A stretch of 64,000 nucleotides of DNA from NCBI GenBank assembly GCA_964595755.1, contig CAZQQZ010000001.1:22228-86227 (forward strand). Reading direction: 5' to 3'. Position numbers and translations under genes: made by a program. Source of the DNA: an uncultured Candidatus Saccharibacteria bacterium. GTDB taxonomy: Bacteria > Patescibacteriota > WWE3 > CAZQQZ01. Position 1 is the stretch's first letter. Each line of letters begins with the position of its first letter. Of this stretch, positions 3,159 through 60,242 are shown piece after piece. Below the pieces are notes generated by a model. That model was not told the DNA's origin and ran no database searches. It saw nothing but the letters and a program-made list of their open reading frames with translations.

Positions 3159-4826
3159 TCAATTGAGGGGGAGAGTAAATACAAAACGAGCGCCTTTTCC
3201 AACTTCGCTTTCCACCCAGATACTGCCTCCGTGAGCCTCAACCACGCCTTTGGCTACGACCAACCCCAACCCCGTACCCTTACTTGAAGCCGCCGTTTTT
3301 ATCTGTTCAAATTTTGAAAAAAGTTTAGATTGATCGCTTTTTGCAATCCCAATTCCACTATCTCGAACATATACTTTGACAAAATCTCCTTCTGCGTACA
3401 CACCCACCTCAACGCTTCCTGTATCGGTGAACTTAATCGCGTTAGAAATCAGATTATTAAGGACCAAAGATAATTTCTCTTCATCAAAAGAAACTTTAAG
3501 ATCGTCCTTGGGAAGGTTGATATTCAGGGAAATTTTCTTTTCATCTGCCTTAACTTTAAAGAACTCCACCTCTTTTTTGATAAAGTCAGAAATGGAGGAA
3601 AGCTTTTTGAGTAGTTCAAACTTACCGGCTTCCATCTTGGCGATATTTAGCAAATTGCTAACCACCCCAAGCATAGAGTATGAGGATTGATTAATCTGAT
3701 CATACATTTTCTTGGCCATCTCAAGATCGAGCTGTTGTTGGCGCTTGATCAAGGTATCAGACATTCCGTGAATAACGGTCAGCGGCGCCCTTAGCTCATG
3801 CACCATCATATGGGTAAAATCTTCCCGCATTTTTTGAATTTCTTTGTCCTTGGTTATATCGTGAATCAAAAGAACCGCCCCAATCGTTTCTTCTCCTCTT
3901 TTTACCGGCGACGCGTACAACTGAAGATATTTATCATCCTTCAATATTTCTGAAATTTCAATTTTCTTAACCTTGACCGTTTCCTTCAAAATTTCTCTCA
4001 AATCTGCTTTTCCGCGAAGAGCCTCGTATACTTCAATAATTGAGAGCTCTTTCTGGGGGTCTAATCCAAGTAGTCTTTTGGCGGCAGGATTAACCACCGT
4101 AAGAAGCATATCAGAACTAACCATCACCACCCCGTCAGTCAAACTCTCAACCGCCGTTTCGATTTTCCCTTTTTCCTCGGCTAGCACAATTTGCAAATTT
4201 TCGACCGCCCTTGTTGCTCTTTTTGCTATTCGATAGAGAATTATCATATCTTCTTCGTCATAAGTGCTTTCAGAAACAGCAGCGATGGTCAAAACCCCAA
4301 GAACTTTACCAAAAATAACCAAGGGTACATTAAAAAAAGTTTTCGGAAGAAGCCCCGACGCCTGATCTACCATAAGGCCGGTAATCCGCTCATCAATGGG
4401 GAAATTATGAGCCTGCGGATCAGCCACCTCATAAAAACTGGCGAGCATCCTTTTTTTGACTTCAGAAATGTAGGCGGGGCCAACTCGATCGTTGGCATGA
4501 AGGCGGAGGGCAAGGCTTTTTTGGGTTTTCACCAGATACGAAGCGGAGCTATACTCAAACAACTCCCGTACAGAATCAATAATTATTTCCGCAATTTTTT
4601 GTATGTCCAAAGAATAGCTAATCCGGTCAGAAATCTCTTGGAGAACGGATATCTCAAACAGTTTTCTCTCCGCGTCGTCTTCCCGCCTTTTTAATGAAGA
4701 TAAAAGTCCCGTATAGAGGTCTTCCTTCCTTTTAGCCAAAAAAATCACCGAAAAACACAAAAAAAATAAGAAAAATATCAGAATATCCCGAGGATTAGTT
4801 GTTAAAAGAGGGTCTTGATTATACAT
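3159..4826 (-). CDS. sensor histidine kinase (N-terminal TM segment, GAF/PAS-like region, HisKA H-box, HATPase_c)
   Basis: H-box HELRAPLTVIHGM, followed by N-, G1- and G2-like boxes (LISNAIKFT, DSGIGI, GTGLGL). N-terminal hydrophobic segment. Confidence 0.75.
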   Translation of the reverse strand: MYNQDPLLTTNPRDILIFFLFFLCFSVIFLAKRKEDLYTGLLSSLKRREDDAERKLFEISVLQEISDRISYSLDIQKIAEIIIDSVRELFEYSSASYLVKTQKSLALRLHANDRVGPAYISEVKKRMLASFYEVADPQAHNFPIDERITGLMVDQASGLLPKTFFNVPLVIFGKVLGVLTIAAVSESTYDEEDMIILYRIAKRATRAVENLQIVLAEEKGKIETAVESLTDGVVMVSSDMLLTVVNPAAKRLLGLDPQKELSIIEVYEALRGKADLREILKETVKVKKIEISEILKDDKYLQLYASPVKRGEETIGAVLLIHDITKDKEIQKMREDFTHMMVHELRAPLTVIHGMSDTLIKRQQQLDLEMAKKMYDQINQSSYSMLGVVSNLLNIAKMEAGKFELLKKLSSISDFIKKEVEFFKVKADEKKISLNINLPKDDLKVSFDEEKLSLVLNNLISNAIKFTDTGSVEVGVYAEGDFVKVYVRDSGIGIAKSDQSKLFSKFEQIKTAASSKGTGLGLVVAKGVVEAHGGSIWVESEVGKGARFVFTLPLN

Positions 4827-6739: not shown

Positions 6740-6814
6740 TGGTGCCGCCATGGGGAGTTGAACCCCACTTTACGGATTGAAGGCCCATTGTCCTAACCGA
6801 TAGACGATGGCGGC
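6740..6814 (-). tRNA. tRNA-Glu (anticodon TTC)
   Basis: The reverse complement folds as a cloverleaf: acceptor GCCGCCA/TGGCGGC, D-stem GTCT/GGAC, anticodon stem ATGGG/TCCGT, loop CCTTCAA, T-arm TGGGG-TTCAACT-CCCCA, discriminator A, CCA encoded. Confidence 0.8.
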
Positions 6815-6836: not shown

Positions 6837-7823
6837 TTACGAGATTTGACGCAACATACCTACAAAAAAATGGAGCTCTTCCTTCCAATAACTTTCATTT
6901 TCGTAGTCTTTTGAAAACGAAATCGTAGCACAAATTCTTTCCAAAAGGCTTACTTTTTCCATAAAAATCACTAGTTTGTCATCAAAAACTGGACAAAATA
7001 AAGAGTAGCCACGTTTAAAACTCTCGGATATTTTCCTGTGGTCCCAACTATTCTGACAAATTGCCCATTGGGCCACCCCAACTCCATAATCATAAAAAGA
7101 GGGACCAAAACAAGTACCCTCAAAATCAAATACTCCGGAAGCTTTGTTTCCTTCAAAAACTAAATTACTGGGACCAAAATCTCCGTGAAGGATACTTTGA
7201 GGCGATCCAAGTAGAGAACGGGTATCCAAAAAAGCCACGCATTGATTAAGTGTACTAAAAACCATCGTGTCCAAGCTTTTTTCCAGATTTATAATGTTTT
7301 GGAAGTCCTTAATTTTTTCGTAGATATCAAGACGAGGAATATCCAAAGAGGTTCCGAAATTTCGGCTTAAAGAGTGAATTTTGCCAAGTAGCTCACCGGA
7401 GCTTTTGACGACCTCCAAATTCCAATCGTCCGGCCAAGCCTTACCTTCAATAAAAGTTAAAACCTCAATCGTGTAACCGTATGGATGATCAAAAAATAAT
7501 TCCCCATTTTTCCCTAAAATTGGGACACGCACGGAGATCCCCTTGCTTTTCAAAAAAATTGACACTTTTTCTTCAAAATAAATACTACCAACGCTCCTTC
7601 TAGGTCGGGAAATTCTAATAATTAATTTTCCAAGATTAGTTTCTGCGATGAAATTAAGATTACTGTAACCGGAAGCAAAAATATTAAAGGAAGTGATATC
7701 TATCGAATAGCGCTCATCAACAAACTTCTCAATTTGAGAATAATCTTTCATTTCCCGAACACGCCTCACAAAAGATGTAAAGGTTTCGTTTTCCTTAAAT
7801 ATTTGCGGTAAAGCAGTCTCCAT
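6837..7823 (-). CDS. aminoglycoside/homoserine-kinase-type phosphotransferase (APH-fold kinase)
   Basis: Brenner motif ILHGDFGPSNLVF and a downstream VFDFEGTCFGPSFYD (DxD) motif, characteristic of the APH/ChoK/ThrB2 kinase fold. Confidence 0.65.
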   Translation of the reverse strand: METALPQIFKENETFTSFVRRVREMKDYSQIEKFVDERYSIDITSFNIFASGYSNLNFIAETNLGKLIIRISRPRRSVGSIYFEEKVSIFLKSKGISVRVPILGKNGELFFDHPYGYTIEVLTFIEGKAWPDDWNLEVVKSSGELLGKIHSLSRNFGTSLDIPRLDIYEKIKDFQNIINLEKSLDTMVFSTLNQCVAFLDTRSLLGSPQSILHGDFGPSNLVFEGNKASGVFDFEGTCFGPSFYDYGVGVAQWAICQNSWDHRKISESFKRGYSLFCPVFDDKLVIFMEKVSLLERICATISFSKDYENESYWKEELHFFVGMLRQIS

Positions 7824-7952: not shown

Positions 7953-8027
7953 TGGTGGGTCCAGTGGGATTCGAACCCACAACTAACGCCTTAAAAGGGC
8001 GCTACTCTACCGTTGAGTTATAGACCC
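7953..8027 (-). tRNA. tRNA-Lys (anticodon TTT)
   Basis: The reverse complement is GGGTCTATAACTCAACGGTAGAGTAGCGCCCTTTTAAGGCGTTAGTTGTGGGTTCGAATCCCACTGGACCCACCA. All four stems pair, the loop is CTTTTAA, and CCA is encoded. Confidence 0.8.
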
Positions 8028-32123: not shown

Positions 32124-32810
32124 CTAGAATCTAAGCGCCACCTTAGGCGCAATCGCTTTTATCTTCGGAAAAAGAATATCAAAAAACTCCCGCTTGTAAG
32201 GTTTTACACTTTTAAAAAACGGGTCGAGCGTAGAAATAGGGTTAAAGTTCTGTAGAAACCATTTATCTTTCTTTCCAATAATCCTCGCCATCGCTAAAAG
32301 ACCCTCTTCGTTATGAATTCCCGGAACAACTGTCGTTCTAATCTCAAAGGTAATTCCGCTCTTTCTAAGAATCTCAAACGATTTTAGAAAGTTTTCGTAA
32401 TCTGACTCCTTATAAATTTTTCCACTTTCCCTCACTTCTTTAAAATCAAGGGCAACATAATCAAGTAACTTTTCTGATGTTAACCTACTTAATACCTCGA
32501 AGTTAAGCCCATTGGTGTCAAGTTTAATAAGAAAACCTAAACTGCGACATTTTTTGATAAATTCAAAAAGATCCGATTGAAGGGTGGGCTCACCGCCGGA
32601 GATAACTATTCCGTCCAAAAGTCCTTTTCGGCTTTCTAAAAACTTAAAAAAGTAGGTTTCATCTATCTTTGGCAACTTTTCTGGAGTTAAAACTAATTCT
32701 TGGTTATAACAAAAAGGGCAACGGAGGTTGCAATATTGGGTAAAAATGATGCAGGCGACTTTGTTCGGAAAATCCATCAAAGTAATTTTTTGTAGTCCTC
32801 GAATCTCCAT
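32124..32810 (-). CDS. nrdG: radical-SAM activating enzyme, probably anaerobic ribonucleotide reductase activase
   Basis: CNLRCPFCYN (CxxxCxxC) radical-SAM motif in a ~228-aa protein. nrdD is 3 kb away. Confidence 0.6.
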   Translation of the reverse strand: MEIRGLQKITLMDFPNKVACIIFTQYCNLRCPFCYNQELVLTPEKLPKIDETYFFKFLESRKGLLDGIVISGGEPTLQSDLFEFIKKCRSLGFLIKLDTNGLNFEVLSRLTSEKLLDYVALDFKEVRESGKIYKESDYENFLKSFEILRKSGITFEIRTTVVPGIHNEEGLLAMARIIGKKDKWFLQNFNPISTLDPFFKSVKPYKREFFDILFPKIKAIAPKVALRF

Positions 32811-32910: not shown

Positions 32911-34731
32911 ATGGCAAAAGAAAACATTAGAAATGTCGCGGTTATCGCCCACGTTGATCACGGCAAAACCACTTTAATAGACGCTCTTCTTAAGCAAACT
33001 CATGTTTTTCGCGACAACGAAAAGGAAATGAGCGAACAATGTATTCTCGATAGTTCGGATCTTGAACGAGAAAAAGGAATTACCATCTTGGCCAAAAACT
33101 GCACCGTTTTTTATAAAGGCATAAAAATTAACATTATTGATACTCCAGGTCACGCCGATTTTTCGGGGGAAGTAGAACGCACGCTTGGAATGGCGGACGG
33201 AGCCCTTCTTATTATCGACGCCCAAGAAGGGCCAATGCCCCAAACCAGATTTGTGCTTAAAAAAGCCCTTGAACTAGGATTAAAAATCATTGTCGTTATC
33301 AATAAAATTGACAAGCAGTTTGCCGATGTCGACCGAGCAATTTCCAAAACAAGCGATTTATTTTTGGATATCGCAACAGATGAAACTCAAATAGATTTTC
33401 CCGTTCTTTACGCCGTCGGTCGGGCAGGGGCGGTTTATAATGAAGTTCCGAGTGATCTTAACGAGCCGCAAAATGCCCTACAGCTTTTGGATAAAATAAT
33501 CGATTACGTTCCCGCGCCAAAAGGTGAATCTTCTGGCCTTTTTAAAATGGTTGTTTCCTCTCTCGATCATGATATTCATCTAGGACAAATCATTCTTGGA
33601 AAAATTTATTCCGGTACGATTTCTGAAGGCCAAGAAGTTATCCTTGCCCAAAAGCCAGAAACAAAATTAAAGATTGAACGGGTAATGGTTAATTCTGGAC
33701 TAACGAGAATAAAAACAGAAAAAGCTGAAGCGGGCGATATTGTCGCTCTCTCCGGAATTCAAGAGGTGGAAATCGGAATGACTTTAACCGACCCAAAAGA
33801 GCCTTCCCCACTACCCGCGCCAAAAATCTCGGAACCAACCCTTCATATGAGCCTTGGACCTAATACTTCCCCATTCTCTGGGAAAGAGGGGCAATTTTGC
33901 ACCGCCAGGCAACTTGAGGAAAGACTAAACCGGGAACTCAAGAAAAATTTAAGCTTAAGGGTAGAAAAAATGGACAATAATAAATTTAAAATTTCGGGAC
34001 GGGGAGAACTACATCTAGCAATTCTGCTTGAAACAATGAGACGAGAAGGCTACGAAATGGAAGTTGGGAAACCAGAAGTCATCGTTAAAAATATCGACGG
34101 AGCCGACTCTGAGCCTGTCGAAGAAGTTGATATTATCGTTCCGGAAATGCATGTTGGGACAATTAATCGAGAGCTTGGAGCAAGGGGCGGTAGTTTAATT
34201 AAAATGAGCCCATTAACGGAAACAGAAATGGAATTTATTTATGAAATTCCAACTAGGGCTTTAATTGGATTAAGGAGTCTGCTTCTAACCCAAACAAAAG
34301 GGACGGTGGTTTTTAATTCAATTGTGACCGGATATGCTCCTTTAGGAAAGCCTTTACAAAAACTCCGCCAAGGTGCGTTGGTTTCCGCAGAGACCGGACC
34401 CGCCCTTTCTTATGGTCTGGAAAACGCCCAAGGCCGGGGAATTACTTTCGTAGACCCTGGAATTCAAGTATACGAAGGAATGATTATTGGTCTTGGGGCT
34501 AAGGAAAATGACATTGACATCAATGTCTGTAAAGGCAAGCATTTGACTAACATTCGCGCCGCTTCCGCCGATAAAATGATCCAACTAGCCCCCTCAACCA
34601 TTTTGAGTTTGGAGCAATCGCTTGATTTCTTAGAGAACGATGAACTTCTCGAAATTACCCCAAAGTCATTGAGGCTCCGTAAAAAATTTCTAACTGACTT
34701 AGACAGAAGACGCGCCAAAAGAGCAGGCTAA
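32911..34731 (+). CDS. typA: translational GTPase TypA/BipA
   Basis: [18 protein letters not shown]1 motif and DTPGHADF. 606 aa with an EF-G-like domain order. Confidence 0.9.
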
Positions 34732-34736
34732 TTTAT

Positions 34737-34772
34737 GTACGAAAACATCGACGGTCGTCGATAAAACCGTAC
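34737..34772. repeat. 36-bp nested palindromic element, copy A (GTACG-AAAAC-ATCGAC-GGTC-GTCGAT-AAAAC-CGTAC)
   Basis: Seen directly. The second copy, at 35610-35645, is identical at 34 of 36 positions. Confidence 0.8.
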
Positions 34773-34827
34773 ATCGTTATTTTGGGGAAACAGACACTCT
34801 GGTAACTTCTGGTACTTTAATTAAGAG

Positions 34828-35583
34828 TCAAAGATTTACTTCGATTTTTTTTCGTATTTCGTCGAATATTTTCCTTGCTTCTCTGCCTCCCCAATCAGCA
34901 GGCAAAATTTCGTCAGGAAGATATGGGTCTTCTTTCAGTATTTCTAAATATTGACCAAAAAATGAAGTATTAACTACCGATGAATTCACGTTTATATTCT
35001 TTTTGCAATTTTCTATGAGGAGGGAGTATCTTTCAGAAATCGCAGGAAGATCCCACGCCTTCATAGCTATTTCTTCATTCGAGTAAGATCCGACTTTCTC
35101 CGCTTCAAAAAACAAAACTCCTATTTCGATATTTTCCGTTTTAAACAATTCTTCTATCTCGTCAATAACTGGATGCGGGGATATCCAAACGCTTTCTTGA
35201 AGTAAACCAAACCCAAGTTGGCGAAGATGATTTCTAACACGTTCTCGCGCATTTCTACTTTTTTCTTCTATGTCAAAAATCACAATTCTCCACTTCTTAT
35301 CCCATGGTTTTTTATTAATCTTGTTAATATTTATTGTTCTGTTTAGAGTCTTAAGGCCTAAACTAGTTATTTTATAACGAATCTCTCCCTCTTGAGATAC
35401 TTCTTTTTCTATTTCACCAACAGACACTAACCTTCTTACCGCCTGCTCTACTTTCCGATCCTTCTTACCCATTCTCAGACCAAGAATATCGTGAGATCTT
35501 TTATTGTAAAGACCAGAAACATAACTCCAATAATCAACCGTTTCCGCAAGTTCTATTAGGATTTTATCTTTTGTTCTCATCAC
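34828..35583 (-). CDS. PaaX-family-like transcriptional regulator (winged HTH plus PaaX_C-like domain)
   Basis: The central motif WDKKWRIVIFDIEEKSRNARERVRNHLRQLGFGLLQESVWISP matches the PaaX-family signature (W.G.W.lv.fdiPE..R..R..lr..L...GfG.lq.SVwisP). The N-terminal region is winged-helix-like. Confidence 0.55.
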   Translation of the reverse strand: MMRTKDKILIELAETVDYWSYVSGLYNKRSHDILGLRMGKKDRKVEQAVRRLVSVGEIEKEVSQEGEIRYKITSLGLKTLNRTININKINKKPWDKKWRIVIFDIEEKSRNARERVRNHLRQLGFGLLQESVWISPHPVIDEIEELFKTENIEIGVLFFEAEKVGSYSNEEIAMKAWDLPAISERYSLLIENCKKNINVNSSVVNTSFFGQYLEILKEDPYLPDEILPADWGGREARKIFDEIRKKIEVNL

Positions 35584-35609
35584 TCTATATGTTACTTCAT
35601 TTTATTAGT

Positions 35610-35645
35610 GTACGAAATTATCGACGGTCGTCGATAAAACCGTAC
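35610..35645. repeat. 36-bp nested palindromic element, copy B
   Basis: gtacgaaattatcgacggtcgtcgataaaaccgtac. It lies 27 bp upstream of the PaaX-like start codon and just after the nrdD stop. Confidence 0.8.
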
Positions 35646-35683
35646 ATAATCCTGAGGGAAAATTGCGCCGACCGATATCAACC

Positions 35684-37801
35684 TTAGACCTTATATTCCT
35701 TCCTCATCGCAAATTCGGATTGCTTTCCATCATTCCACTGCTTTACCGGGCGCAAATAACCAACAATCCTTGAGAATACTTCACACTCTGCCTTGCAATC
35801 CGGACATTCAAAATGCTCTCCCGCAATATACCCATGAGTTGGGCAAATGCTGAATGTTGGCGTTAGAGTAAAGTAGGGCAAGTGGTAATTCGAAGAAATC
35901 TTTCTTACCAAAGATTTTACTGCCTCAATCGAGGGAAGCTTCTCCCCCACAAATCCGTGCAAAACCGTTCCCCCGGTGTATTTAGTCTGAATTTCGTCCT
36001 GAAGGGTAAGGGCAGCAAATAAATCATCGGTATAGTTTACCGGCAGTTGAGAGGAGTTGGTGTAAAAAGGAGCGGCTCGCTTTTGCAAGTAGTCAAGCTC
36101 ATTGGCAACTACAATATCGGGATACATCTGCTTATCTTTCTTGGCCAAGCTAAAGCTAGTGCCTTCCGCTGGAGTTGCCTCCAGGTTATAAAGCTCATTC
36201 TGCTCTTTTTGAAAATCCCCCAATTTCTCCCGCATAAAATCTAGCACCTCCACCGCGAACTCCCGCCCTTCATCCGAAGCAATATTCTTCCTCATGAAAT
36301 TCATAATCGCTTCGTTCATTCCACAAAGTCCAATTGTATTAAAGTGGTTTTTCCAGTATGCCCCAAATCTTTCCTTAACTGAGGAAAGGTAAACCTTGGC
36401 GTATGGATACAGTCCTTGATCAGTAAAAGTCTCGAGAACATTCCTTTTTAAAGAAAGACTATCTTTAGCAAGCATCATTAACTTTTCAAGACGGGAGAAG
36501 AAATCCTTTTTATCATTGGCTAAATACCCAATTCTTGGCATATTTATGGTAACGACCCCAATACTTCCAGTCAAGGGATTAGAGCCAAATAACCCTCCAC
36601 CACGTTTCCTTAGTTCTCTCTTATCAAGACGCAATCGACAGCACATCGAACGAGCGTCCGAAGGATCCATATCGGAATTAACAAAGTTTGCAAAATAGGG
36701 AATCCCGTATTTTGCCGTCATTTCCCAAATCGGCTCCAAATTTTTATTATCCCAATCAAAATCCTTGGAAATATTGTAAGTGGGAATGGGAAAGGTAAAA
36801 ACCCGACCCTTAGCGTCCCCCTGGACATAAACCCGAGCGAGCGCTCGATTTATCATATCCATCTCTACCTGAAACTCGCCGTATTTTTTATCAATCGGTT
36901 TTCCCCCAACAATGGCATGATCTTTCGCAATATCTTTGGGGGGTGTCAAATCGAGAGTTATGTTGGTAAAGGGAGTCTGAAAGCCGACCCGGGTTGGGAC
37001 ATTGGCGTTAAACATAAATTCCTGAAGCGCTTGTTCCACTTCTCGTTCGGTAAGTTTATCCACCCAAACAAAAGGGGCAAGGTAAGTATCAAAATTGGAA
37101 AAAGCGACCGCCCCAGCGATTTCCCCCTGAAGGGTATACAAGAAGTTAACCATCTGCCCAAGGGCCACCCGGAGGTGCTTGGGAGGCTTACACTCAATTT
37201 TCCCAGAAACTCCACCGAAACCTCGAATAAGTAAATCACGAAGGTCCCACCCACAACAATACGGAGCTAGAATCTGAAGATTATGAATATGCATGTCTCC
37301 CTTAACGTGAGCATCGCGAATTTCCGAGGAATATATTTTATTAAGCCAGTAGCGGGCGGAAATGGTTGAAAAAACATGGTTATTTAACCCCTGCAAAGAA
37401 TAATCCATATTGGAATTCTCTTTAACTCGCCAGTCAGAACGGGTTAAATAGCTGTCCATCAGCTCGTCAGTATCAACCAGAGAGTTTATATCGCGGATGC
37501 GGTTATGAAGATCGCGGTACAAAATATAAGATTTGGCGGTTTTTGCGTGTCCAGTTTCGATCAAAACCTTCTCTACAATATCTTGAATATCTTCCACCGA
37601 AGGAATCGTGTGTCCATCATATTTTTTTTCGAGCAAAGTAACGACCTTATCAGAAAGCGCTTTCGCCAGCTCCTTGTCCTTTCCCCCAACACTACGAGCC
37701 GCTTTAAAAATCGCGTCCGTAATCTTAACTTGCTCGAAAGGAACAATTCTCCCATCTCTCTTTCTGATTTCGGTTACCGTAATATCTTTTGTCTTTTCCA
37801 T
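35684..37801 (-). CDS. nrdD: anaerobic ribonucleoside-triphosphate reductase (class III)
   Basis: N-terminal ATP-cone. C-terminal CPxHG...CPDC zinc ribbon and glycyl-radical motif RIVGY. Confidence 0.85.
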   Translation of the reverse strand: MEKTKDITVTEIRKRDGRIVPFEQVKITDAIFKAARSVGGKDKELAKALSDKVVTLLEKKYDGHTIPSVEDIQDIVEKVLIETGHAKTAKSYILYRDLHNRIRDINSLVDTDELMDSYLTRSDWRVKENSNMDYSLQGLNNHVFSTISARYWLNKIYSSEIRDAHVKGDMHIHNLQILAPYCCGWDLRDLLIRGFGGVSGKIECKPPKHLRVALGQMVNFLYTLQGEIAGAVAFSNFDTYLAPFVWVDKLTEREVEQALQEFMFNANVPTRVGFQTPFTNITLDLTPPKDIAKDHAIVGGKPIDKKYGEFQVEMDMINRALARVYVQGDAKGRVFTFPIPTYNISKDFDWDNKNLEPIWEMTAKYGIPYFANFVNSDMDPSDARSMCCRLRLDKRELRKRGGGLFGSNPLTGSIGVVTINMPRIGYLANDKKDFFSRLEKLMMLAKDSLSLKRNVLETFTDQGLYPYAKVYLSSVKERFGAYWKNHFNTIGLCGMNEAIMNFMRKNIASDEGREFAVEVLDFMREKLGDFQKEQNELYNLEATPAEGTSFSLAKKDKQMYPDIVVANELDYLQKRAAPFYTNSSQLPVNYTDDLFAALTLQDEIQTKYTGGTVLHGFVGEKLPSIEAVKSLVRKISSNYHLPYFTLTPTFSICPTHGYIAGEHFECPDCKAECEVFSRIVGYLRPVKQWNDGKQSEFAMRKEYKV

Positions 37802-48167: not shown

Positions 48168-48202
48168 GTATTTATTTGAAATTAACCTAATCGACTAACA
48201 TT

Positions 48203-48261
48203 AATTGGCGAGGCACAGCCAGCCTCGCCGAACGTGAGTCTAGGCGGGCCTCGCAGCTACA
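48203..48261. repeat. intergenic repeat copy 1 (reverse orientation relative to copies 2 and 3)
   Basis: Its reverse complement is tgtagctgcgaggcccgcctagactcacgttcggcgaggctggctgtgcctcgccaatt, which aligns with 54987-55042 and 56608-56658. It contains the 8-bp stem GGCGAGGC/GCCTCGCC. Confidence 0.7.
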
Positions 48262-48282
48262 ATAATAGAAAGGAATGAAAAT

Positions 48283-54946: not shown

Positions 54947-54986
54947 GTCCTTATTATACCAAATTTGATGGCTTGAAACTGAATTT

Positions 54987-55042
54987 TGTAGCTGCGGGGC
55001 CCGCCTAGACTCGTGGGCGAGGCTGGCTGTGACCCGCCAATT
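54987..55042. repeat. intergenic repeat copy 2
   Basis: tgtagctgcggggcccgcctagactcgtgggcgaggctggctgtgacccgccaatt, between the GT4 gene start and the methyltransferase gene end. Confidence 0.7.
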
Positions 55043-55048
55043 TATTGC

Positions 55049-56707: not shown

Positions 56708-56731
56708 GATTACTTATTCGAATAAGTAATC
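56708..56731. repeat. perfect 24-bp palindrome GATTACTTATTCGAATAAGTAATC (left boundary of the RM cassette)
   Basis: Exactly self-complementary; 30 bp downstream of the RM gene stop. The second copy, at 60219-60242, has one mismatch. Confidence 0.85.
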
Positions 56732-56760: not shown

Positions 56761-59700
56761 TTATTTTGATAATTGCTCATAAAATTTATTTTTCAGGCAT
56801 TGGGAATTAACGAATTTGGCATCCGAAACTTTGTCTTTAGGAATGTCAATGTTGAAGTAAAGACAAAAGACGAGGTTGTCTATAAAACCTTTAATCCCCT
56901 TTTGCTTATCAAAATCAATGATCGGCAATGATTTTAAATCTTCCAGTAGTATTTGCTTTCTTTCAAAATCTAATTTTTGGTCACCGTAATTCCCGTCAAT
57001 TATCTTTTTGATCAGATCAAGATTATCCTTAATTTGTAGCTTTATCTCTTTGTCATCTTTTATTAAAACCAAACAGCCATCTTTTGTTATAACGTTGTCA
57101 AACTTCTGAACCAACACGTTTGAAAAATCAACAAAATCTGAAAGAGTTAACTCCTCTAAACCGAGTAATTGGCTAGTCTGTTTAATAATTTCGTTCTTGA
57201 TTAGTTGATTTCTTTCATCAATCTTTGGCACACGAACAAACTCTTTTACAGAAGTGGTTGAAATAAGAAAGTTTTTTTCATTTTCGCTTCTTAGGAGGGA
57301 ATTAAGAATTAGAGTTATGGATGAGGAGTTGAGCAAAGCAAAGAGATATAAAACCTCTTTTTCGTTGTCACTTCCTATTGCACAGATTTGATTTCTCGCC
57401 CAGATAACTGGCTGAGTGGTAAAGAAAAACCTACTAGGATTGGCGTATGACCACATCAGTTTAAATTTACTATCTAGCAGGTTATACCCTTGGTTGGCCT
57501 GCCTCAACTTTATGGTATATGACGAATTACCTAAGCGAATGTTTGGCCAATACCCCTTAGACCCTTTAATTGTCCAGAGTGAACTATTTAATTTGGGGTA
57601 GTAATAAAATTCCTCGTTCGGCTCTTCTTTCAACAGCTTACTTTCATCAATGCTATACCCACTATCAAAAAAGAATTTAGTTTTGAATTGGAATTTAGAA
57701 AATGTATGTTCGTAATAGATTGAAATATCCTCAGTAGTTCTCTTGTACTCGTTATAAAAGTCAAGAAATGCTTTGTTTTGCTTAATAAAGTTCCAATTAG
57801 TCACATTTCGTAAAAACTCAGATTGCAATACCATCTTTTTATTGATTTTTTTATTGGCTGAAATGTTTTCTAGCGCGTGCCCTACCTCATCGTCTGAATT
57901 CGCATAGTTGATTATCTCGACATGGTGAAGTGTAGGTGGTAGTTCTCTCCTTATAGCAAAAATCAGGCTCGAGGTAGCTATTGGCTTATTCTGCCTTAAT
58001 CCTCTACCCACAAACATCTTGCCGCTAAATGTAATTATTTTCTCAATCGTGGTAAATTTAGCTAAATGATAGCGAAGAACGTCTAGATCTCCAGCGGTTA
58101 AAAGTGTTTGCGGAATGATATAGCAAAGTCTACCATTATCTTTAAGAAGGGCAAAACCTAATGCAATGAAAAAAGCATAAAGATTGGGGTTAGGACGATA
58201 CTTTTTAGAATTGTCAGGAACACTATGAAGATTCACACCGTAAATATTATTGAGTTTTATTTTGCCACGCTTCATTAACTCAAAGGTCAAAACACTCTGT
58301 TTTGCGCACTCGTTATATCCCACATAAGGCGGGTTACCTATTACAAAGTCAAAACGCCTTCTTGGGCATTCCTGCTGGTTTTCAAGGCTTTTTTTCATTT
58401 CCTCCAAATCGCTTTCCTCTCTGACGTAACTTTTGTATCCTAAATCTAATTTTTGAGAAAAAAGAGGAATTTGATTGGGGGAACGTGCTTTCTTTTGAAA
58501 TTCAACTGTCTGGTCATTAAAAGTATTGCGTAAAGCAGTGTCCATAAACTCAGAAATACTATCTCTAGTGAGGAAAACCTTAATTTTTTTATCAACGGGG
58601 TTGTTATATTTCTCGTTAATTATTTGAGGTAACATTCTCATTAAGATATTCATTTCGGCTAGGTATAGTGGGAACTCGGCAATGTCCAACCCAAAAATAT
58701 TATCATTGATAATTTTCTCGACCTGTTCAGATTTTTCAAAGGAACTGTTGCCAAATGCTTTAAGAACAGAGTCAACAGCGCTGTAGAGGAAAGTCCCGCT
58801 TCCGCAAGATGGATCAATTAATGAAATGCTATTTTTGTCGTCCTGATATCTTTTTTGAAGAGCCTCCGGGGTAAATCCGACTTGTTGTAGCATAAAGTTA
58901 ACAACTGCCGGATCGGTAAAGTATTGCCCCTTTTTTGTGTCCTCATACAACTCCTTAAGATAGTTTTCGTAAATATAACCAAAAATCTCATTCTGGATGT
59001 TAGCGAAGTTATATTTTTTAATAAAAACGAATATATCAAGCCACGGGGCAACATCGTGAAGTTCGTTCTTGGGTTGCCTGTACAAGGCAAGCAAAATCTG
59101 ATTGATGAAATCCTGCTCCTTCTTGAAAGGTCTATAAATATTTTGAGAGATTTTATTTGAGATACCTTCAATAACACCTAAAATCTTACCGTATTGTTTA
59201 ACTTTGAGGCATTCGTGAATCGCTTTAACAATATCTGCAAATTCCTGAACAAAATTATCAAACCCGTTATCAACCAAAGTTTTATACAAAATGAACTGGA
59301 TAACATAAGCGTAAGTAATCTCGACTGCCTTTTTCTCTCTATCTCTTCTGTCCAATCCCTCAAAATATCCCTCAATCTGAAGCTTGTTTTTAAAACTTCT
59401 TATTAGTTTGGTAATATCGTCAAAAAATATCTGCCTATTTTCTTCAACAGGAAGTCTTTCCTCTTTCAAAAGAGTGAGTTGGCTTTGAGGTTCAAAAAAA
59501 GTTAGGTAATAAAACTCCGGCTTGACGTATTCCTTCCAAAATTCAAGGAAAAGATCGGTTTCATTAAAAATTTGGTCTAAGCTAAACTCACGATAAATGT
59601 TGTTGTTGTAAAAACGCCAAGTATAGCCATCCGTTAAAATCCCGTAATGTTTATCGAAATCTTTTTGGTAAGCGATAAGTTGTTTTATACCCGCTTGAAT

Positions 59701-60024
59701 ATTACCGTAACACTCTGCTTCCAAAGGAATAATAATCTCTGGACTAATATAAACAACAAAATCTGCCTTTCGACCTTCCTTTGCTTTATTTTCGTGAATA
59801 TACTCATTTTTTCTTGATTCCAATTTTCTTGAAAGAGAGCCTTCCCTTAAATCAAAGAGCTCTTCGCTTTCAAAAAAAGCTTTGACGAAACTATGAACAC
59901 CCGAGCCAAGCTCTTGGTTTTTATAATATTCCTTTTCTTTACTCCACTTACCTTTTAACTCTTTGATGCTCATATTCCTGTTTCTTTCTTGAAATTGCCT
60001 TTGCCATCGGATTAAGGTTTCCAA
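56761..60024 (-). CDS. Type IIG/IIL restriction-modification enzyme, MmeI-like fused endonuclease-methyltransferase-TRD
   Basis: 1087 aa. Gamma-class N6-adenine MTase motif I LIDPSCGSGTFL and motif IV FDFVIGNPPYVG, matching MmeI FFDPACGCGNFL and ILGNPPFVG. N-terminal GRKADFVVYISPEIIIPLEAECYG aligns with the MmeI PD-ExK region GFVDLFWPGILLIEMK. Long C-terminal TRD-like region. Confidence 0.7.
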   Translation of the reverse strand: METLIRWQRQFQERNRNMSIKELKGKWSKEKEYYKNQELGSGVHSFVKAFFESEELFDLREGSLSRKLESRKNEYIHENKAKEGRKADFVVYISPEIIIPLEAECYGNIQAGIKQLIAYQKDFDKHYGILTDGYTWRFYNNNIYREFSLDQIFNETDLFLEFWKEYVKPEFYYLTFFEPQSQLTLLKEERLPVEENRQIFFDDITKLIRSFKNKLQIEGYFEGLDRRDREKKAVEITYAYVIQFILYKTLVDNGFDNFVQEFADIVKAIHECLKVKQYGKILGVIEGISNKISQNIYRPFKKEQDFINQILLALYRQPKNELHDVAPWLDIFVFIKKYNFANIQNEIFGYIYENYLKELYEDTKKGQYFTDPAVVNFMLQQVGFTPEALQKRYQDDKNSISLIDPSCGSGTFLYSAVDSVLKAFGNSSFEKSEQVEKIINDNIFGLDIAEFPLYLAEMNILMRMLPQIINEKYNNPVDKKIKVFLTRDSISEFMDTALRNTFNDQTVEFQKKARSPNQIPLFSQKLDLGYKSYVREESDLEEMKKSLENQQECPRRRFDFVIGNPPYVGYNECAKQSVLTFELMKRGKIKLNNIYGVNLHSVPDNSKKYRPNPNLYAFFIALGFALLKDNGRLCYIIPQTLLTAGDLDVLRYHLAKFTTIEKIITFSGKMFVGRGLRQNKPIATSSLIFAIRRELPPTLHHVEIINYANSDDEVGHALENISANKKINKKMVLQSEFLRNVTNWNFIKQNKAFLDFYNEYKRTTEDISIYYEHTFSKFQFKTKFFFDSGYSIDESKLLKEEPNEEFYYYPKLNSSLWTIKGSKGYWPNIRLGNSSYTIKLRQANQGYNLLDSKFKLMWSYANPSRFFFTTQPVIWARNQICAIGSDNEKEVLYLFALLNSSSITLILNSLLRSENEKNFLISTTSVKEFVRVPKIDERNQLIKNEIIKQTSQLLGLEELTLSDFVDFSNVLVQKFDNVITKDGCLVLIKDDKEIKLQIKDNLDLIKKIIDGNYGDQKLDFERKQILLEDLKSLPIIDFDKQKGIKGFIDNLVFCLYFNIDIPKDKVSDAKFVNSQCLKNKFYEQLSK

Positions 60025-60218: not shown

Positions 60219-60242
60219 GATTACGTATTCGAATAAGTAATC
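60219..60242. promoter_or_regulatory. 24-bp palindrome GATTACGTATTCGAATAAGTAATC immediately upstream of the AbrB-like gene; candidate operator
   Basis: Lies 7-25 bp upstream of the candidate start codons of the AbrB-like gene; one mismatch from the perfect copy at 56708-56731. Confidence 0.5.

Follow-up and report, generated by a model that had tools for sequence, protein, structure and literature searches.

In the 64,000-nt window of contig CAZQQZ010000001.1 analyzed here, a gene encoding a protein of the PaaX superfamily is bracketed by two copies of a 38-bp palindrome. Both copies are probably double-stranded DNA operators for a dimer of the encoded protein, with autorepression at the upstream copy and an auxiliary role for the second site downstream. 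The evidence comes from the repeat itself, its association with the same gene throughout the protein family, a bipartite symmetry that points to duplex DNA, copies that evolve in concert and a geometry like that of PaaX operators. A preliminary description of this region had offered three interpretations, namely autoregulatory operators, bidirectional terminator hairpins or the ends of a small inserted cassette. The proposal is partly supported, the operator being the best supported of the three. All coordinates given without a locus name are positions within the window.

To our knowledge, Patescibacteria have tiny genomes with few recognizable regulators, and almost nothing is known of their cis-regulatory code. 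The present data provide a testable protein-DNA pair, composed of a family of about 5,300 representatives and a predictable bipartite site of 38 bp. The predicted site combines locus-specific outer arms with a CGRYCG center, each locus supplying its own cognate site. The presence of such a site at both ends of a gene, or inside its coding sequence, is unusual and points to looping, transcriptional insulation or cassette behavior.

Palindromes around the PaaX-like gene in the window and in related genomes

Two near-identical nested palindromes of 36 bp had been reported in the preliminary description, and their coordinates and two-base difference were confirmed, as were the distances given to the neighboring genes. 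On the + strand the downstream copy (34737-34772) reads GTACGAAAACATCGACGGTCGTCGATAAAACCGTAC and the upstream copy (35610-35645) reads GTACGAAATTATCGACGGTCGTCGATAAAACCGTAC, with only two internal differences (AC versus TT). When as many as three mismatches are tolerated, the 36-mer occurs twice in the 64-kb window and in none of 100 dinucleotide-preserving shuffles. Since the similarity between the copies reaches 44 nt (34731-34774 and 35604-35647), the full palindrome is 38 bp long, with the form TGTACG-N26-CGTACA and the center CGGTCG.

The upstream, promoter-proximal copy (35609-35646) reads TGTACG-AAATTATCGA-CGGTCG-TCGATAAAAC-CGTACA on the + strand, and its arms are complementary at 13 of 16 positions. 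The downstream copy (34736-34773) reads TGTACG-AAAACATCGA-CGGTCG-TCGATAAAAC-CGTACA, with 11 of 16 positions complementary. The conserved center, of the CGRYCG class, lies at 35625-35630 in the former and at 34752-34757 in the latter. The outer half-site CGTACA at 35641-35646 is partnered by TGTACG at 35609-35614, and that at 34768-34773 by TGTACG at 34736-34741, so that half-sites stand 32 bp apart from center to center, or about three helical turns. The two copies are in direct orientation to each other and 873 bp apart.

The genes typA and PaaX-like converge at their 3' ends, and the downstream copy lies between these, 5 nt from the typA stop (34731) and 55 nt from the end of the PaaX-like open reading frame (ORF; 34828). 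The upstream copy occupies the middle of the 100-bp intergenic region between nrdD and the PaaX-like gene, 38 nt from the nrdD stop (35684) and 26-29 nt from the start codon (GTG 35583 or ATG 35580). In the sense of the gene (- strand), the upstream copy alone contains a -10-like hexamer, GATAAT (35617-35622), which the two copy-distinguishing bases change to GATGTT in the downstream copy. This is suggestive of a -10 element of the promoter. A scan of the window with promoter and terminator consensus sequences gave numbers near the shuffle expectation.

An extra CGGTCG hexamer (TATCGGTCGGCG, 35675-35684) was observed just past the nrdD stop, 30 nt upstream of the upstream copy. It is probably a chance occurrence, given the 47 CGRYCG hexamers in the window. 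A degenerate pattern, TACG-N5-ATCGAC-N4-GTCGAT-N5-CGTA, had no match in a metagenome contig collection that evidently lacks the L002 sample; as the Joint Genome Institute contig L002 (metagenome 3300008086) does carry the element, this lack of a match says nothing on copy number.

The window locus, with both elements, is identical in all six metagenome contigs recovered. Two proteins about 70% identical to that of the window, P0003 and P0004, are encoded in unrelated gene contexts (loci L003 and L004/L005), and their genes are also bracketed by two copies of TGTAC(A/G)-N26-(C/T)GTACA. The inner palindrome differs among loci and is nearly constant within each of them, reading ...ATCC(T/G)CGATCGCGGA... 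in L003 and ...AGCACGATCGTAC... in L004.

A protein-based scan with one genome per species gave at least 589 loci, from which 80 were kept, almost all from Patescibacteria and none with a protein close to that of the window. Bracketing was evaluated in 76 loci in which the ORF is complete and 200 nt of flanking sequence are available at either end, and was called when the segment shared between upstream and downstream flanks scored at least 14. A locus-specific palindrome brackets the gene in 44 of these 76 loci, and none of 600 mismatched upstream/downstream pairings reached that score. Moreover, CGRYCG-centered palindromes of 38 bp, counted if at least 11 of the 16 arm pairs are complementary, have a density of 2.31 per kb up to 200 nt from the gene ends, which falls to 0.14 per kb within the ORFs and to 0.0136 per kb in the remainder of the same loci, an enrichment of about 170-fold at the ends of this gene family (82 loci, other genomes). 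When no assumption was made about the center, a search found that the dyad is exactly CGRYCG in 35 of 44 loci (CGATCG in 13, CGGTCG in 11, CGGCCG in 8 and CGACCG in 3). The median center of the upstream element lies 39.5 nt before the start codon and that of the downstream element 34.5 nt after the stop. The family itself is large: a profile search of 1.84 billion cluster representatives (50% identity) found 8,266 relatives at E<=1e-3, of which 5,330 also pass E<=1e-10, and several genomes carry multiple diverged paralogs.

The distance between the copies ranges from 636 to 957 bp across loci, and their orientation is mostly direct. In L092, which encodes a 175-aa Falkowbacteria member, the downstream copy (3580-3618) is the exact reverse complement of the upstream one (2947-2985), with centers CGACCG and CGGTCG, and the two copies of L016 are likewise inverted relative to each other. 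Direct orientation is thus no constant feature of the family. In L027, L062 and L068 the two copies of the locus disagree at the central RY. In four loci (L009, L010, L012 and L019) the second copy lies within the coding sequence at nt +629 and there is none downstream; in L026 the +629 copy is a third one, the downstream copy being also present, and further internal copies are found in L015 (+778) and L014 (+608). The +629 copy falls in a variable linker of the C-terminal domain and is translated in frame as MYVxSxGRxLQHT or xHDRx (CAC GAT CGT, His-Asp-Arg). As the internal copy takes the place of the downstream one in four of these loci, what seems to be conserved is a second site 0.64-0.96 kb away, rather than the gene boundary. 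We also considered that the downstream copy could be the operator of the next gene, and rejected this because the downstream neighbor is convergent in the window, as it is in 13 of 28 further loci.

Sites beyond the bracketing pair were also observed in related loci. In L036, CGATCG-centered palindromes (GGGACAA...TTGTCCC) form tandem arrays with a period of 87 bp, with about five units upstream (2414-2800) and two downstream (3720-3845) of the PaaX-like gene. A CRISPR-like array was considered here and rejected, since the 49-bp spacers are themselves repeated, as in an 87-bp tandem duplication. In L081 (1099-1136; about 980-1017 in L084) a CGGCCG-centered palindrome lies away from any PaaX-like gene, about 70 nt upstream of a gene for a putative secreted protein of 119 aa. 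Its arms, GTACAGCG, are related to those of the local PaaX-like gene, TTACAGTG, without being the same, and the site may be a genuine regulon target of a paralog.

The encoded protein and a proposed operator model

The bracketed gene (34828-35580, - strand) encodes 250 aa from ATG 35580, or 251 aa from GTG 35583. Pfam detects PaaX_M (3.2e-26) and PaaX_C (2.9e-9), as well as a sub-threshold match to CRISPR_Cas2 (2e-4), and the order of domains is an N-terminal winged helix, a Cas2-like middle domain and the PaaX_C helical domain. Sequence matches in the PDB include PaaX 8a39 (E=1e-11, about 23% identity) and 3kfw (E=9e-7). The AlphaFold2 (AF2) model has a pLDDT (predicted local distance difference test) of 76, with the N-terminal winged helix at low confidence; its best PDB matches by Foldseek are PaaX 8a39, Rv0674 3kfw and 3l09, and the middle domain matches Cas2 structures with a probability of up to 1.0. 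The preliminary description of the protein as a PaaX-family-like regulator holds for the superfamily, as indicated by Pfam, PDB and fold, and fails for PaaX orthology. By these comparisons the protein is a PaaX-superfamily member without being a PaaX ortholog, since its score with the PaaX equivalog model TIGR02277 (104.3) is below the cut-off of 264.55 and no paa catabolic genes lie near the window gene, the neighbors in relatives being unrelated housekeeping or accessory genes.

The middle domain keeps the Cas2 signature VIFDIxE...LQxSVW, in which D103 and E106 are invariant in the family (D103, the Cas2 beta1 Asp, in 23 members). The score with the Cas2 model TIGR01573 is just above the cut-off (25.0 versus 24.5, residues 97-132), and for this reason some sources label proteins of the family "Cas2"; the Cas2 models of PADLOC reach 1.3e-6. 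Such annotations by NCBI are misleading. There is no cas1 among the neighboring window ORFs and no CRISPR-like array in the window, where the largest repeat families have four weak copies at most. The retained signature bears on how the Cas2-like fold became the dimerization module of a transcription factor.

The symmetry of the elements is bipartite. Arm complementarity is 93% at position 1 from the center, 63-80% at positions 2-8 and 88-96% at positions 9-15. Non-complementary positions on the gene-sense strand comprise 60 G.T and 60 A.C pairs, with no strand bias. This pattern fits the binding of a protein dimer to duplex DNA, and not an RNA hairpin.

The main argument that the encoded protein would bind both copies is their concordance within each locus. 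Identity between the two copies of a locus is 90% in the outer arms and 73% in the inner arms. Between loci with 50-70% protein identity it is 61% and 46%, respectively, and in more distant loci it drops to about 33%, near random. The correlation of arms with proteins (Mantel r=0.26) was reached in none of 2000 permutations, suggesting that both copies track the protein of their own locus. Bracketing is ancestral to the family, and thus the concordance within loci needs locus-specific selection or gene conversion. As the only locus-specific protein lies between the two copies, we infer that it is this protein that binds both.

In the model that we favor, two winged helices would read the outer arms TGTACG/CGTACA, 32 bp apart and on one face of the helix, with the CGRYCG center under the Cas2-like dimer core. 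Since the upstream copy fills most of the 100-bp intergenic space, it would overlap the promoter of the PaaX-like gene, resulting in negative autoregulation, and it would also stop transcription that reads through from nrdD. For the downstream copy we propose the role of an auxiliary operator, namely a looping anchor, a roadblock or both; a protein roadblock at this position would shield the gene from antisense transcription coming from typA. The autoregulatory operator suggested in the preliminary description is the interpretation favored by PaaX-type geometry, family-wide association, arms that follow the protein and symmetry at the DNA level.

Several points weigh against this model. About 40% of the sampled loci have no detectable pair. 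The comparison of -10-like hexamers between upstream and downstream copies across the family is borderline (p=0.05) and was not used as evidence. There is no helical phasing in the spacing between copies over the range of 636-957 bp, which is uninformative at such distances. The correlation between arms and proteins is partly expected from shared ancestry alone. Moreover, it is not obvious what physiological output a regulator would have if its only detectable sites are those beside its own gene, and few extra sites were found elsewhere (L081, L025 and the L036 arrays). Finally, D103 and E106 are lost in true PaaX, which hints at an activity of this family beyond DNA binding.

Cassette, nuclease and hairpin explanations

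The palindromes might instead delimit a small cassette, mobile or selfish, as its ends or its sites of recombination, the gene and its two flanking sites being moved or exchanged as a unit. Either the protein would bind these ends in the manner of a transposase, or crossing over by a host recombinase would take place in the 6-bp CGRYCG core, with autoregulation as a by-product. Indeed, the gene sits at variable spots in otherwise conserved gene orders. In L091 (69% nrdD identity) nrdD is next to nrdG, and both the PaaX-like gene and the palindrome are missing from the space between, and in L086 (80% nrdD identity) an unrelated NYN gene follows nrdD. In L025 (2069-3700) cobT and cobS are separated by a gene for an ERCC4/(HhH)2-type nuclease, which is split in two ORFs, and by a PaaX-like gene. 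Three sites with the shared arms TACGCTACA...TGTAGCGTA are placed before the nuclease gene, between the two genes and after the PaaX-like gene, and the arrangement looks like an accessory cassette inserted in a cob operon. Also in agreement with mobility are the homologs of about 70% identity in unrelated contexts, the diverged paralogs within single genomes and the thousands of family members, the mostly direct orientation of the copies, a conserved 6-bp center with inverted arms resembling the core site of a recombinase, and the invariant acidic residues of Cas2 type.

However, identical proteins keep a single context: that of P0056 is the same in 23 contigs or more, which come from many samples, and that of P0009 in 10 contigs, and the window locus did not vary among its six contigs. 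No family member was found in a scan of IMG/VR viral contigs, and no recombinase or transposase gene is adjacent. A search for empty sites through nrdD and typA homologs reached relatives of at most 80% (nrdD) and 70% (typA) identity, which have other gene orders and offer no clean before/after comparison; neither L086 nor L091 showed an empty site marked by a lone palindrome. L092 and L016 have their copies in inverted orientation, those of L027, L062 and L068 differ in the central RY, and in the four loci with a second copy at +629 and none downstream, excision would truncate the gene. Cassette ends, as proposed in the preliminary description, are thus weakly supported: the variable spots in conserved operons speak for them, while the fixed contexts, the lack of an empty site and the internal or inverted second copies speak against. 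A cassette role would be compatible with operator function, but the tests for recent mobility give it no support and we regard it as unlikely.

A bolder proposal, slightly less probable still, is that these loci form a hitherto unrecognized class, widespread in Patescibacteria, of self-contained and possibly selfish single-gene modules. The protein would then not only bind its palindromes but also use the invariant acidic residues of Cas2 type, located at the dimer axis, to nick or cut the CGRYCG dyad. If so, cutting at the dyad could serve the gain and loss of cassettes, recombination or interference directed at plasmids or phages, and the family would be an evolutionary intermediate between Cas2-like nucleases and PaaX-type repressors. 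The interest of the system would be much higher if the conserved acidic residues do act on the dyad.

The elements could also be hairpins of RNA or DNA, acting as factor-independent bidirectional terminators or as mRNA-stabilizing stem-loops at the ends of transcription units. The predicted fold of each copy is a nested hairpin (-15 to -21 kcal/mol, z from -1.6 to -5.0, best on the gene-sense strand), a terminator scan flags the inner stem at 34763-34746, and one copy follows the stops of two convergent genes while the other follows the nrdD stop. However, there is no T-run after either window copy on either strand, and in relatives only one of 34 downstream elements is followed by six or more T in the next 9 nt. 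The equal numbers of G.T and A.C mismatches favor no transcribed strand, and symmetry is lowest at positions 2-8, beside the center, the very part on which a hairpin depends most. General terminators do not have a self-complementary loop conserved as CGRYCG, arms that are specific to the locus or an exclusive tie to one gene family, and no Rfam family matches the elements. The terminator interpretation was rejected as very improbable.

Least plausible of all, and largely refuted for the window, is a genome-wide dispersed palindrome similar to repetitive extragenic palindromic (REP) elements that lies beside this gene by chance, for although the 36-mer is a GC-rich nested intergenic palindrome in an AT-rich genome, there are only two copies in 64 kb and one further outer-arm match (10 of 12 bases, at 4535), sites are concentrated at the ends of this gene family, the arms are locus-specific and no HUH/RAYT (REP-associated tyrosine transposase) gene was seen nearby. 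The common REP-like element that the preliminary description had named as one possible refutation was found neither in the 64-kb window nor at related loci.

Genomic setting and comparison with known systems

Upstream of the PaaX-like gene and co-directional with it is nrdD (35684-37801, - strand), encoding the anaerobic ribonucleotide reductase (Pfam NRDD and ATP-cone). The convergent downstream neighbor is typA/bipA (32911-34731, + strand; Pfam GTP_EFTU and BipA_C), followed by the gene of the activase, nrdG (32124-32810, - strand; Pfam radical SAM). The PaaX-like gene does lie between nrdD and nrdG, as had been proposed, but it is not alone in splitting them, for the 1.8-kb typA on the opposite strand lies there too. 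Further neighbors in the window are ftsZ, ftsA and ileS. TypA of the window is identical to one annotated in a metagenome-assembled genome of candidate division WWE3, of the candidate phyla radiation (CPR).

Other repeats were observed in the window. A second bracketing pair consists of two direct copies of a 24-bp palindrome, GATTAC(T/G)TATTCGAATAAGTAATC (GATTAC-N12-GTAATC), at 56708-56731 and 60219-60242, which flank the gene of a 1087-aa type IIG restriction-modification protein (56761-60024, - strand; Pfam Eco57I, N6_Mtase and MmeI_Mtase). A GATTAC...GTAA(T/A)C element also occurs in L086 (about 7147-7170), just past the nrdD stop and upstream of the NYN gene, and in L003 (about 985-1010), about 100 nt upstream of the PaaX-like gene. 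These elements may be the operator of another regulator in the lineage. GC-rich inverted repeats of about 63 nt with internal hairpins, 90-96% complementary, lie at 48200-48262 and 54986-55045. The 6.7-kb block between them holds - strand genes (a class II aminoacyl-tRNA synthetase, recO, DUF4012, a sugar transferase and two GT4 glycosyltransferases). This block could be an invertible or mobile segment, or the repeats could be paired structured RNAs. Two tRNA genes on the - strand (6743-6814 and 7956-8027), 1.2 kb apart and with 85% identity over 52 nt, are probably recent paralogs or isoacceptors.

Full-text literature searches returned nothing that links PaaX with Cas2 or CPR, nothing of relevance on winged-helix regulators of Cas2-like type and no description of such elements. 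In the literature searched, a PaaX-type repressor/operator pair in a self-bracketing arrangement, widespread in Patescibacteria, is thus undescribed.

Among known systems, RAYT/REPIN loci and the terminal repeats of insertion sequences share with the PaaX-like loci a gene flanked by palindromic sites that co-vary with the encoded protein. They differ in that the PaaX-like loci have no dispersed or multiple identical copies and no HUH or DDE domain, and keep fixed contexts. The likeness to Cas2 and its VapD-like relatives lies in the middle domain, which matches Cas2 models and structures and in which the beta1 Asp is invariant; here, however, this domain is fused to a winged helix and to PaaX_C, no cas1 or CRISPR array is nearby, and there are two isolated repeats 873 bp apart instead of an array.

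Repressors with auxiliary operators include LacI (O1/O2), GalR (OE/OI) and lambda CI, whose OR and OL flank cI-rexAB. As in these systems, a putative promoter-proximal operator is accompanied, hundreds of bp from it, by another site of the same type. Such a distant site can fall within coding sequence, as lac O2 and gal OI do and as the +629 copies do in relatives of the window gene, and in lambda the repressor gene likewise lies between its two operator regions. In contrast to these looping repressors, the PaaX-like loci have a spacing of 636-957 bp that lacks helical phasing, and the second site in the window controls no outward-facing promoter, the neighbor being convergent there and in 13 of 28 other loci.

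The closest comparison is with PaaX of E. coli and Pseudomonas, a repressor of the paa genes that phenylacetyl-CoA releases from its DNA. The family of the bracketed protein keeps the Cas2 signature (FDIxE, QxSVW) where E. coli PaaX has ...LLLLSEGLDKS... and ...ALAPSLMASP. The window element adds a conserved CGRYCG center and an inner palindrome, which are absent from the AT-rich spacers of E. coli; a second copy is present downstream, or within the gene in relatives, and none that is credible was found in E. coli; and the window gene has no paa genes nearby. For E. coli PaaX, the reported operator is TGATTC(N27)GAATCA (PMC9493321), and in E. coli K-12 we found the operators again at Pa (N27), at Pz (N28) and upstream of paaX (N26). 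Despite these differences, both proteins combine a winged helix, a Cas2-like dimerization domain and a C-terminal helical domain, and both have an operator, or a candidate one, ahead of the gene for the regulator itself (Px in E. coli). In both cases the site consists of two inverted 6-bp half-sites about 26-28 bp apart, which in the window take the form TGTACG-N26-CGTACA.

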